Shown here: piece by piece, positions 55,581 through 58,922 of the stretch
Layout: the number at the start of each line of letters is the position of its first letter
How positions within the stretch are numbered: position 1 is the first letter of the stretch
DNA from: Escherichia coli
GTDB lineage: Bacteria; Pseudomonadota; Gammaproteobacteria; Enterobacterales; Enterobacteriaceae
Direction: 5' to 3' (one strand)
DNA: 64,000 nt
Assembly: GCF_003334405.1 (NCBI RefSeq)
Contig: NZ_QOWM01000015.1
Position numbers and translations under genes: made by a program
The notes under the pieces: model-generated
What the model was told of the DNA's origin: nothing
Databases searched by the model: none
The model's input: only the letters and a program-made list of their open reading frames with translations

Positions 55581-56477
55581 CTATGACTGGCTGTTTTCAG
55601 TAAGAGTCTTATCATCCAAAGAATTTATTCTAGAAATTCTTTTTAACTCATTAAGATAATCAACCTCGTTTTCTAAGAACCAATGAAGAACTTTAGAGTT
55701 GCCAAGTAATTTATTAATATATGACTGGATTATAACGAATTTCAACATATCTGAACCATACTCGGTTTGAAGTTTTTTCGTTTCTTCCGAAGTTGTTGCC
55801 ATTTCTTGTTCCAGACGAAGTATGGTTTTTTTTATGTCCTTTTTATAGGGAGTGTTTTTCCCTTTATTTACTATCATCGATGACGGTGTTGCATCCAAGA
55901 TGCTCATTGCAAATTTTTTACTATAATTATCAAAATTAATCATTGTACCGACTGCTTCAATTTGACGAATTGGCTTCATTTTCCTCAAAACGTCAAATGT
56001 AGCCTTAGGTATAGGTTTATCAGAAAGTTTCGCAATTACACTTGGATCTATGCCGTTCATCACATTAGCTTTATCTTTTATGGCATCAACAGATATGCCC
56101 AAAGCAGCACTAAGTTTTTCAATTGATACTTTTGCCAGAGACTTAATTATCATTCTATGTTCTTCAACTACATTTATATGATTCACTTGTTTGTTAGGAG
56201 TGAAAGCATCATCTATGCTCGAAAGTATACATGGAGCTTTTTCTATATCTAAGTCTTTTAAAGCCTCAACCCTTAAATGGCCATCAAGTATCTTAGTGAC
56301 ATCTTTATCTTTGTCATAGAATACTATTATTGGTTCAATAATACCCAAGCTTTCGATAGAGGTAACTATTTGATGATATTTATGGCTTCGCTTTACGTTT
56401 TCTAATAATTCCTTAGATGGAATTAACTTATTAGTTTCCAGGTAAATAAAATTTTTGCCAAAACGTATCTGAATCAT
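55581..56477 (-). CDS. ParB/Srx-fold (ParB N-terminal domain-like) protein B
   Basis: 298-aa ORF; N-terminal region (…IIEPIIVFYDKDKDVTKILDGHLRVEALKDL…) resembles the ParB N-terminal domain including its arginine motif position. Confidence 0.6.
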   Translation of the reverse strand: MIQIRFGKNFIYLETNKLIPSKELLENVKRSHKYHQIVTSIESLGIIEPIIVFYDKDKDVTKILDGHLRVEALKDLDIEKAPCILSSIDDAFTPNKQVNHINVVEEHRMIIKSLAKVSIEKLSAALGISVDAIKDKANVMNGIDPSVIAKLSDKPIPKATFDVLRKMKPIRQIEAVGTMINFDNYSKKFAMSILDATPSSMIVNKGKNTPYKKDIKKTILRLEQEMATTSEETKKLQTEYGSDMLKFVIIQSYINKLLGNSKVLHWFLENEVDYLNELKRISRINSLDDKTLTENSQS

Positions 56478-57370
56478 TTTGATACCTCTTTGTTTACTGG
56501 GTTTAATATCTGAGATGGTAGTTCTGAAAGATTCTCTTGTTCAAGTATATTTTGAAAGCTTTTATTCATCATTATGATGTTAAAAATCTCATTTATTATT
56601 AGTAGATTGGTTTTTATAAATTTCGAGTTGTTATAAACAGATTTATGTTCAGCGATACTATTTTCATAAAGCTCAATCAACTCCTCTGCAGTCATCCTTT
56701 TTGATGGTTTGTGATAATAAAATCCGGCTGCTTTTGCACCTTTATTCCCAACTGTTCTTTGATTTAGAATGTATTTTATCTTTATAATGTCCCGACTTTT
56801 TATTAATTTTTTATCATATGCTTCGGTAAGAATATCTTGTGCTTCCTCAGTTTCACATCTTGCAAATTGCACTGCGAGATACAGAGGCAAATTACCCCGT
56901 TCGACTGCTGAGAGAAGTTTATGCTCTCCCTTATCAAGAAGCATATTAATACTGCTCACCCAGTTCGATGAATATCCAGTAATCTCACTTATTTCGGAGT
57001 CTGAAAGTCCTCTGATTTTCATGTCTTTAATCACCTGTAATAACTCATTAGAACGTGGTCTTCTCCTTGCAATGTTTTCAACTAAACTCATAACGTAAGC
57101 ATCTTCTTCTGATACATCTCTTATAATTGCTGGAATAATAGTTTCACCTAATGCAACAAGAGCCTCTATTCTCCCTTGACCACAAATTAAAGCATATTTG
57201 AAATCGTCTTCATCAATAGCTCTTACGCTTATAGGCTTGCTTAATCCTCTTTTTTTTATGCTTTCCTTTATTTCTTCATGCACTACCTTATTTCTTGTTC
57301 GTGGGTTAAGAAATTTTATTTTTGCAATCTCAATTTGAATTATTGGGAATTCATTTTTTTCAGGCAGCAT
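56474..57370 (-). CDS. ParB/Srx-fold (ParB N-terminal domain-like) protein A
   Basis: 298-aa ORF (…LSKPISVRAIDEDDFKYALICGQGRIEALVALGETIIPAII…); overlaps the downstream ParB-like gene by 4 nt and the upstream recombinase gene by 11 nt. Confidence 0.6.
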   Translation of the reverse strand: MLPEKNEFPIIQIEIAKIKFLNPRTRNKVVHEEIKESIKKRGLSKPISVRAIDEDDFKYALICGQGRIEALVALGETIIPAIIRDVSEEDAYVMSLVENIARRRPRSNELLQVIKDMKIRGLSDSEISEITGYSSNWVSSINMLLDKGEHKLLSAVERGNLPLYLAVQFARCETEEAQDILTEAYDKKLIKSRDIIKIKYILNQRTVGNKGAKAAGFYYHKPSKRMTAEELIELYENSIAEHKSVYNNSKFIKTNLLIINEIFNIIMMNKSFQNILEQENLSELPSQILNPVNKEVSK

Positions 57371-58922
57371 ATAGTTCCCTCACTTTCATGCGAGTAATAA
57401 TTTGTAGAAATTTATCAAGATTATCAAATCTATAGAGATCTAACCGAATGTTGTTTGTTTCCATCATACACATTTTACTATATTCGTTTTCAATCTTTGG
57501 TATGATATAAAAATCAAGAGGTGAAATATTTTGTGAATTCATTCGTATAACAATTGTTATGTCTGCTTTCTGTGAGTTATCAAACCGGACTTTCCATCTA
57601 AGTTTACCTGATTTCATATGTATGCATTTAGTAACAAGGACGGAAATTAAAAACTCATCATTGATGTAAAGCATTGGGTAATATTTATACTCGTCTATAT
57701 GACAGTTACTTTTTAATATTTCGCCCTTAAAATCCTCAATTATCTCTGAGTAAAATGATCTTAGTGCTTCATTTATTTGGAGATAGCTGTAATCATGTTC
57801 TGGCTTATAACCAATCAAAGTATATGCTCTTAAAAGACCACCAAATCGGGTTCTATAAACAGAAGATGAAGGGCCTGTATCATCTTCATCAATGATAAAG
57901 CCTGATAGTTTTCCATTAGATTCTAATTTTTCTTTTAGCTTTTCTAATAGATCTTCATTAGTCAAATGAATGGATCGGAGCTGAATTATTTCTTGAGCTT
58001 TATTATATTTTTTCTTTGAAATAATTGGTTTATATGCCTTGTCACATCTAATCCATTCATGTTTGGGGTTTTTTACAAGCTTACTTTTTAGTTTAGATGA
58101 GGTTTTGTTATATATGTTGTTTCCAATATATTTTTCATTTGTCAAAATTTGATGTATTTTTGCACGAGTCCATGATGTTCCATTTTCTGCAGGTATGCTC
58201 TGTTCATTTAATCTCTCAGCAATAATGAATTCTGGGACGTTACTATCTATAAAGAGATCATAGATTCTATTTACAATTTTTATTTCATTTTTTGGTCCCG
58301 GAATTAATATTACCCTATCTGTTTGAATACTCTTTCTTTTGCGGAAATTCAATATTTCTTTAGCTATGCCATTTTCGTCTACTAAAAGACGTCTCAGCCC
58401 ATAACCAGCCATACCGCCTTGATGATAACCAAGCTTTATTAAATTTACTTGCCCTATAAATACCTTTTCAGATAGATTCCTGCTGTGATATGCAGCACTT
58501 GATCTTTTTATATTCAGTATAACAGAGGACTCTAAAGGGAAATCTTTAGTGGGTATAGGTTCGGAACAATATATAAGATCTACACCATTTCTTTCAAATA
58601 GAAAGGAATAATATGCAGCTTCATCACTATTTTGAAAACGACCAAAACGGCTCACATCATAAAATAATACAGCCTGTATATCTATTTTCTTTTGTTCTAC
58701 ATCGCTAAGTAACTGCTGCAAAGAATGCCTGCCTACGATACTGACTCCGCTCTTACCTGCATCATCGTAGGTATAAGCGATTTCCATATTGTTCTTTTCA
58801 GCATAATCTTTGATATATTCAGACTGATTATGTAAAGAATATTGCTGATGGTCGGTAGACATCCTCAAGTACTGTGCGACCCTAACTCTATGATTTTTTT
58901 CATTTCCGCTAGCCATGCACAA
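57360..58922 (-). CDS. large serine recombinase
   Basis: 520-aa ORF; N-terminal resolvase catalytic domain (VAQYLRMSTDHQQYSLHNQ…YTYDDAGKSG…LFYDVSRFGR) with a long recombinase-type C-terminal extension; start may be the third codon. Confidence 0.75.
   Translation of the reverse strand: MCMASGNEKNHRVRVAQYLRMSTDHQQYSLHNQSEYIKDYAEKNNMEIAYTYDDAGKSGVSIVGRHSLQQLLSDVEQKKIDIQAVLFYDVSRFGRFQNSDEAAYYSFLFERNGVDLIYCSEPIPTKDFPLESSVILNIKRSSAAYHSRNLSEKVFIGQVNLIKLGYHQGGMAGYGLRRLLVDENGIAKEILNFRKRKSIQTDRVILIPGPKNEIKIVNRIYDLFIDSNVPEFIIAERLNEQSIPAENGTSWTRAKIHQILTNEKYIGNNIYNKTSSKLKSKLVKNPKHEWIRCDKAYKPIISKKKYNKAQEIIQLRSIHLTNEDLLEKLKEKLESNGKLSGFIIDEDDTGPSSSVYRTRFGGLLRAYTLIGYKPEHDYSYLQINEALRSFYSEIIEDFKGEILKSNCHIDEYKYYPMLYINDEFLISVLVTKCIHMKSGKLRWKVRFDNSQKADITIVIRMNSQNISPLDFYIIPKIENEYSKMCMMETNNIRLDLYRFDNLDKFLQIITRMKVRELYAA

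Follow-up and report, generated by a model that had tools for sequence, protein, structure and literature searches.

The window analyzed here, a stretch of 64,000 nt from Escherichia coli (assembly GCF_003334405.1, contig NZ_QOWM01000015.1), covers an ssrA island in which a P4-type integrase gene is directly followed by genes for a large serine recombinase (LSR) of atypical build and for two different ParB-type proteins, ParB-A and ParB-B. These three genes, hereafter the trio, form one operon without ParA, beside a separate tyrosine integrase. All lie on the minus strand: the LSR gene at 57360..58916 (518 aa from the ATG at 58916), ParB-A at 56474..57370 (298 aa, of the canonical ParB type, with an N-terminal cytidine triphosphate [CTP]-binding domain and a helix-turn-helix [HTH]/RepB domain) and ParB-B at 55581..56477 (298 aa, a diverged ParB paralog), with overlaps of 11 nt (LSR/ParB-A) and 4 nt (ParB-A/ParB-B). 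An initial annotation of this DNA had described the co-directional genes and their overlaps correctly. It had assigned 520 aa to the recombinase, and this open reading frame (ORF) is real, running from an in-frame TTG at 58922 (57360-58922), but RefSeq (518 aa) and the sequence favor the ATG. It had also noted a tyrosine integrase, intA, near ssrA and the lack of a ParA partner, and on both points we agree. intA (59199..60428, minus strand; NF007246, 444.6 bits, above the cutoff) directly precedes the trio, from which it is separated by a spacer of 283 bp, and the ssrA tmRNA gene (60595-60957) lies upstream of it. No ORF with a deviant Walker A motif (KGGxGK[ST]) was found anywhere in the 64-kb window, and ParA is not a conserved neighbor in the 80 loci surveyed below or in annotated contexts. 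The comparative data show that the trio is a real, functional and portable module under selection, which is widely conserved, has its own regulatory palindrome, and resides among the cargo of integrative elements and megaplasmids.

The recombinase matches the Pfam families Resolvase (PF00239, 1.4e-21) and Recombinase (PF07508, 1.1e-21), as well as PHROG 95 "integrase" (4.6e-69). Across 20 LSR homologs the nucleophile motif YxRMST is invariant, as are residues Y16, R18, S20, T21 and Q24. We built an AlphaFold2 (AF2) model on 20 homologs (predicted local distance difference test, pLDDT, 75) and compared it with known structures using Foldseek: its first ~330 aligned columns resemble serine integrase structures solved by cryo-electron microscopy, including Bxb1 (E 1e-13 to 4e-10), and most matches are ~320-340 columns long. 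A resolvase catalytic domain with an invariant serine motif, followed by a recombinase domain, is also the layout of the large serine recombinases already described (Bxb1, phiC31, LI; CcrA/B; TnpX/TndX). Unlike them, the trio LSR lacks the zinc-ribbon/coiled-coil module, and is an atypical member of the class. The zinc ribbon (PF13408) gave no Pfam match in this protein, no conserved cysteine pairs or cluster occur in the C-terminal 200 aa of the 20 homologs, and residues 320-518 are modeled as a helical region, which bears the motif PSSSxYRxRFGxLxxAYxLxGY, and a beta-sheet domain. Searching with this C-terminal domain returned only partial close relatives. A further difference is that the trio LSR is always followed by two ParB-type genes, an arrangement not known to us for any characterized LSR, and that no att sites were found in searches of its flanks. 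At 42-62% identity, the LSR shows the strongest conservation among the trio proteins.

ParB-A scores above the cutoff of the partition-protein domain TIGR00180 (61.7 bits against 58.45), matches the Pfam families ParB_N (5e-13) and RepB (4e-7), and has sequence matches in the PDB to Spo0J (1e-11), Myxococcus xanthus ParB, Noc and KorB. Its boxes NPRxR, CGxGRxEA and ENxARxxxR are invariant across 17 homologs and are the counterparts of the three boxes with which canonical ParB binds CTP. ParB-B combines a strong match to RepB (6.8e-24) with a weak one to ParB_N (7.8e-5), and a profile of 18 homologs matches Noc (1e-9). The examination of the CTP pocket proposed at the outset thus gave a divided answer: all three boxes are kept in ParB-A, but in ParB-B the invariant motifs deviate (SxKYxQI, DGHLRxEA) and the N-domain boxes are degenerate, while the fold is still that of ParB. 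The best folds for the ParB-B AF2 model (pLDDT 78) are ParB-CTPgammaS, Noc, Spo0J and KorB over ~200 columns, after which the C-terminus is modeled as long helices. The two proteins had been called paralogous-looking; they do share ParB_N and RepB, but only as distant paralogs (30% identity over 63 aa).

The N-terminal ParB/Srx domain and the HTH found in both proteins, together with the three boxes of ParB-A, resemble the ParB CTPase clamps (Spo0J/ParB, Noc, KorB, VirB). The trio differs from these in that its paralogs are obligately paired, that one pocket is degenerate, and that both are co-transcribed behind a recombinase; there is no ParA as in ParABS, no membrane helix as in Noc and no KorA as with KorB. 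It had been suggested alternatively that the proteins belong to a defense or addiction module of ParB/Srx-type nucleases akin to DndB or GmrSD. With such proteins (DndB, GmrSD/DUF262, SspE) they have in common a distant ParB/Srx N-domain, and the DGHLR of ParB-B recalls DGQHR/DGQQR, which we take as a lead only. However, the trio ParBs have HTH/RepB domains and clamp-type structural matches, with no DUF1524/HNH and no dnd or ssp genes. When the three proteins were run through PADLOC, the sole match was a weak one of ParB-B to a type II methyltransferase model, and no PADLOC defense model matches the trio. Because of their domains, the CTP boxes of ParB-A, the structural matches of ParB-B and the absence of a PADLOC model, we regard both proteins as clamp-type ParBs with HTH and not as nucleases of this kind.

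The 3.7-kb trio block is present in 657 of 5,426 complete E. coli genomes (12%), always on the chromosome and never on a plasmid. Natural carriers include REL606 and BL21(DE3), and the trio is missing from K-12; in BL21 the island is cut down to int and the trio, followed by an IS1 element. Among the contexts examined there are two E. coli lineages, with at most two places per genome, the second lineage (94.7% identity) lying beside a truncated integrase with other cargo. The ratio of nonsynonymous to synonymous substitution rates (dN/dS) between the lineages is 0.17 for LSR and 0.06 for both ParB-A and ParB-B. Given these low values and the gene order kept in other genera, the trio genes are not chance ORFs.

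Relatives of ParB-B number more than 1,300 in 90%-identity protein clusters. We surveyed their surroundings in one genome per species, obtaining 80 loci, 71 of them with enough upstream sequence, that span Enterobacterales, Rhodobacterales, Sphingomonadales, Hyphomicrobiales, Pseudomonas, Burkholderiales and others. The initial annotation had treated co-occurrence in other genomes as decisive for its view of the trio as a unit, and the genes do co-occur: LSR, ParB-A and ParB-B are colinear in 67 of the 71 loci, in alpha-, beta- and gamma-proteobacteria, and the four exceptions are visibly decayed. Indeed, LSR is missing solely from visibly decaying loci. The same order is seen in 17 of 18 viral-contig loci found via ParB-B alone. 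Clustering of the ORFs flanking the 80 loci revealed no other widely conserved neighbor; the next commonest is a small divergent HTH gene, at 28 alpha-proteobacterial loci. Moreover, pairwise identities co-vary, with r=0.97 for ParB-A versus ParB-B and r=0.79 for LSR versus each ParB. In PLSDB the trio occurs on alpha- and beta-proteobacterial megaplasmids such as pAtC58, and the plasmid hosts listed there include no genus of Enterobacterales. Multi-copy matches in S. meliloti were rejected as trios, being solo ParB-B-like genes. We found no description of the trio in the published literature or curated families searched; the NCBIfam names are generic only.

Upstream of the LSR gene lies a conserved promoter/operator block (58956..58994, minus strand), in which a TTGAAT -35-like hexamer is followed by the 19-bp palindrome TAAAATTTGATCAATTTTA (58956-58974). 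Its center, TGATCA, holds a Dam GATC site (58963-58966), whose methylation state could affect expression or binding, for example after replication or conjugative entry. In 10 Enterobacterales loci with LSR identities down to 47%, this is the sole conserved non-coding block, with the common form AAAAAGGTTGCAAC-N-AAAWTGATCAATTTTT and an invariant TGATCA. It occurs as a single copy in the window, where no second copy of the site was found. On the strength of its position and sequence, we consider the block a candidate ParB-A/B binding (parS-like) and/or recombination site; palindromes of 16-19 bp near the trio are in this respect comparable to parS, NBS and OB, as putative binding sites. Rhodobacterales carry another upstream palindrome, CCGGAAA-CGAC-TTTCCGG.

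The boundaries of the module are tight. In pairwise comparisons the conservation sets in exactly at the upstream block, ~85 nt upstream of LSR, and ends 0-50 nt past the ParB-B stop, with unrelated flanks. In the window, a short 3' tail (55531..55580, minus strand) is the last stretch kept in both E. coli and Enterobacter lineages before the flanks diverge; the match to the 94.7%-identity lineage begins at position 55530. An IS3-family fragment (ISKpn34-like, 77% identity; 55400-55540) abuts the 3' end of the trio here, occupying the place of the integrase fragment found there in the other E. coli and Enterobacter lineage. In Rhodobacterales (loci L032-L071) a non-coding tail of ~200 nt, ~20-240 nt after ParB-B, is more conserved than the neighboring genes; GGGGACC recurs in it as a motif, and it ends in a hairpin, GGGGCGTGTCGGAG-N9-CTCCGGCACGCCC, past which the flanks diverge. 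This tail, for which a search of Rfam matched no family, may represent an RNA, a terminator or a stretch bound by a protein.

We searched for sites at which the recombinase might act. A search for repeats flanking the trio, as att or crossover sites, had been proposed, yet around 54.4-59.4 kb only chance-level matches were found. Among ~85 loci, no direct repeats between flanks rose above shuffled controls, save a duplication of the int 3' end in a single lineage (L003) and a motif in Agrobacterium. A chimeric query of the two flanks, designed as an empty site, found adjacent flanks in 0 of the 5,426 complete E. coli genomes. The proposal of a DNA inversion or excision switch was not supported by these searches, with no repeats above chance, no second site in the window and no empty site. 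In Agrobacterium, the junction motif CGCCTTGAA-N-CGAACCGTYGGCCC stands at both ends of a 3.9-kb unit that two plasmids share at 96.9% identity. We considered it as attL/attR and rejected it, as three further intergenic copies occur in the next 50 kb of pAtC58; it is therefore a generic dispersed repeat and not a site specific to the LSR. On Agrobacterium plasmids this repeat, CGCCTTGAA-N6-7-(T/C)CGAACCGTYGGCCC, is found at L090 6047 and 9929, at L128 6402, 14813 and 40904, and in L093-L095, and falls at the boundaries between cargo modules (AbiE, Fic, trio unit).

N-terminally truncated tyrosine-integrase fragments occur just after ParB-B in three loci (L003 15052-19212, L004 2979-3263 and L025), all oriented like the complete int that precedes the LSR gene; they could reflect either tandem-island decay or an insertion-related duplication. 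That the trio had inserted into int and supplied a replacement 3' end, like e14 at icd, we hold to be less likely than decay of tandem islands. In trio-less int homologs the similarity holds up to 34 nt before the stop codon, H149 is an IS1 truncation only, and the downstream int fragments begin at different codons, lineage by lineage.

In E. coli, Salmonella, Dickeya, Pantoea, Kosakonia, Paraburkholderia and Yersinia the trio has a tyrosine integrase as its neighbor, and both relative orientations occur. A query spanning the int-LSR junction matched 715 E. coli genomes and was covered to at least 80% in 629 of these. In other genera the int beside the trio shows no more than 33-46% identity, or is encoded on the opposite strand. 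The initial annotation had wished to see whether the trio moves independently of intA; IntA is a linked neighbor in E. coli, outside the universally conserved module. In alpha-proteobacterial and metagenomic loci the trio has core-like genes on one side and cargo on the other, and no tyrosine integrase occurs in 10 kb. The carriers are transferable: the E. coli island has a relaxase, the Yersinia element MobA, pil and TraD genes, and the megaplasmids are conjugative. On pAtC58 the trio, with AbiE, Fic and a restriction enzyme among its neighbors, lies near one end of a defense island (Qat, Gabija-like) whose opposite end is marked by a tyrosine int; the repABC genes of the plasmid itself are 40 kb away. 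Defense-type neighbors at other, separate loci include type I and type II restriction-modification (R-M) systems, Hxs, TIGR04141 and an AAA+RloB pair, and in a trio-less E. coli ssrA island a Gabija-like pair takes the same position after int. Genes of the Fic family stand directly beside the trio in three unrelated contexts (L086 6385-7002 in Salmonella; L090 9965-11146 and L095 4453-5991 on Agrobacterium plasmids), which may simply reflect Fic as defense cargo.

In the window, GC content is low throughout ~29 to 60.6 kb (31-37% in the island), and the region ~29000-60600 looks like a mobilizable island at the CP4-57 site. It includes a tRNA-Met gene (32300-32375), an autotransporter (35282-39991) and a relaxase/mobilization gene (46581-47810, minus strand). 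No copy of the ssrA 3' end with up to 3 mismatches was found as attR, and the far boundary was not located. Next to the trio, an operon of two genes with a 1-nt overlap (51509-54528, plus strand) encodes a 704-aa NACHT-type nucleoside triphosphatase with a repeat-rich C-terminus and a 301-aa RelA/SpoT-like nucleotidyltransferase. This pair, which has only weak matches to HalA, AbiGI and PADLOC PDC-S33, looks like an uncharacterized defense candidate. In strain 300709 its RelA/SpoT-like gene is annotated as split. In the same strain a P2-like prophage with an anti-phage dCTP deaminase is inserted between the island integrase and ssrA (L001 23800-42100), from which we deduce tandem occupation of the ssrA site.

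What might such an operon do? The reading that we favor, though we still hold it to be doubtful, is that the trio is a self-contained module for site-specific recombination under ParB control, which in a res-like manner maintains or resolves the element carrying it. ParB-A, with its intact CTP pocket, and ParB-B, with its degenerate one, would form a heterotypic ParB clamp. Loaded on the palindromic, parS-like promoter site, this clamp would autoregulate the operon, and would also assemble an accessory nucleoprotein complex licensing the recombinase. Since the LSR would have lost its zinc-ribbon/coiled-coil control module, site choice and control of direction may have been outsourced to the ParB pair. 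Recombination would take place between two copies of the single site beside the recombinase gene, as in a res arrangement, so that the carrier, be it an excised island or a megaplasmid, would be stabilized by the resolution of its dimers, tandem copies or cointegrates. Several observations argue for such a scheme: the single conserved promoter palindrome sits where a res site would, the res site of Tn3-like elements lying upstream of tnpR; the three genes co-evolve under purifying selection within tight boundaries; the C-terminus of the LSR is atypical and the ParB fold and motifs are kept; and the carriers are circular, transferable elements.

There are precedents for this scheme among resolution systems (Tn3/gamma-delta res-TnpR, Sin/Hbsu, RK2 parCBA, Xer at cer with ArgR/PepA). 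Some recombinases owe their selectivity for resolution to accessory DNA-binding proteins: ArgR/PepA act with Xer at cer, and Hbsu with Sin and the beta recombinase. Like those systems, the trio has a conserved candidate site before the recombinase gene that overlaps the promoter, encodes (where others recruit) accessory DNA-binding proteins, and is found on transferable circular carriers; like RK2 parCBA, it is a three-gene operon with a recombinase of the resolvase family. RK2 ParB, however, is a homolog of staphylococcal nuclease and is unrelated to the ParB-type proteins of the trio. The trio further differs in its recombinase of the large type, its accessory proteins of the ParB type, and its exclusively chromosomal location in Enterobacterales. 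Both the place of the upstream block and its conservation are in keeping with res/mrs systems, whose subsite architecture and reaction would be hypothetical for the trio.

A number of points weigh against this proposal. Both the candidate site and the recombination reaction are predictions, and we infer the heterodimer and the contact between LSR and the ParBs solely from co-occurrence. The upstream palindrome varies between clades and was not found in every one of them. A generic plasmid-stability function would lead us to expect the trio on Enterobacterales plasmids, yet it is absent from these despite their heavy sampling, and islands integrated in the chromosome have little obvious need for multimer resolution. 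Finally, the neighbors are very often defense or toxin-antitoxin genes, which a defense role fits equally well. With regard to the ParB pair itself, we think it possible, though less likely than not, that ParB-A/ParB-B works as an obligate subunit, switched by CTP, which controls or targets a serine recombinase that lost its own zinc-ribbon/coiled-coil control domain.

The first alternative, which we consider unlikely, is a role in anti-phage or anti-plasmid defense, or in competition between elements, with the ParB pair sensing or loading on foreign DNA and the recombinase breaking or rearranging it. The trio is a portable cassette with tight boundaries, found in cargo hotspots and in either orientation beside integrases, and the company it keeps (the NACHT and RelA/SpoT pair, AbiE, Fic, a restriction enzyme, type I and II R-M, Hxs, TIGR04141, AAA+RloB), together with the Gabija-like pair that replaces it after int, is what would be expected of a defense system. 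However, in addition to the lack of a PADLOC model and of literature, the trio contains no nuclease, NADase or membrane effector, and we know of no immunity mechanism based on a recombinase. Recombinases and ParBs are typical genes of the mobilome, which occur in defense islands because these are themselves mobile.

A role in integration or excision appears similarly improbable: the LSR would then serve as a second integrase, either for the island or for some nested or composite element, with the ParB pair as its directionality or regulatory factors. Of the three functions suggested initially, an integration/maintenance module comes nearest to the comparative data, but the trio behaves as a portable cassette rather than one end of a nested element. 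Serine integrases are what the LSR most resembles in fold and in its PHROG family; the trio lies at island edges beside int in E. coli, Salmonella, Dickeya, Pantoea, Kosakonia and Paraburkholderia; in the alpha-proteobacterial and metagenomic loci with no tyrosine integrase near, it separates core-like genes from cargo; on pAtC58 it lies toward the end of the defense island away from the tyrosine int; and truncated int fragments follow ParB-B in L003, L004 and L025. Against this, no empty site was found among the 5,426 E. coli genomes, and flanking repeats do not exceed shuffled controls, apart from the int 3' duplication of one lineage and the generic Agrobacterium repeat. The conserved DNA ends at the operon, and therefore there are no conserved att half-sites. 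The orientation relative to int varies, and the trio is rare in viral contigs: IMG/VR, with 2.9 million contigs, yielded 23 loci, mostly boundary calls near the E. coli ssrA. The trio also differs from LSR transposons of the Tn4451/Tn5397 type, which have variable insertion sites and target-like ends and leave empty sites on excision: in E. coli it shows two lineages in the contexts examined, at most two places per genome and no empty site among the genomes searched, and the junction motif of Agrobacterium is a generic dispersed repeat.

It is distinctly less probable that the main task of the ParB pair is CTP-dependent transcriptional regulation or anti-silencing of the island, in the manner of KorB or VirB, with the recombinase co-transcribed but functionally separate. 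The structural matches do include KorB, the palindrome and the promoter overlap, and the E. coli island is AT-rich and presumably silenced by H-NS. However, the LSR would hardly be expected to be the most conserved protein and to vanish only from decaying loci, the same layout is found in GC-rich alpha-proteobacteria, and the window holds a single copy of the operator. Lastly, an ordinary partition module of the ParABS type with ParA elsewhere is very improbable: ParB-A does exceed the TIGR00180 cutoff and both proteins match RepB, but no ParA accompanies the trio in the window or across the 80 loci, no centromere repeat array was found at the window trio, all E. coli copies are chromosomal, and pAtC58 has a repABC of its own. 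We regard the trio as effectively excluded from being either a ParABS partition system or a ParB/Srx nuclease.

The known functions of ParB CTPases are segregation (ParABS), nucleoid occlusion (Noc) and the control of transcription (KorB, VirB). Genome engineering relies on large serine recombinases as major tools, and their direction is set by a coiled-coil motif and separate directionality factors. An operon joining a recombinase that lacks the coiled coil with a heterotypic ParB pair suggests that recombination may be gated differently. If our proposal is true, it would give the ParB CTP switch a new job, and in the trio a nucleotide-gated DNA clamp of the ParB type would for the first time be seen coupled to site-specific recombination. 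The trio is also common, both in E. coli, including widely used strains such as BL21(DE3) and REL606, and across Proteobacteria. Because it sits in the integrase-proximal cargo hotspot of defense-carrying islands, its function bears on how such islands are maintained or assembled, and on our proposal would represent a widespread, as yet unnamed function of genomic and defense islands, be it element maintenance, cassette exchange or immunity against mobile elements.

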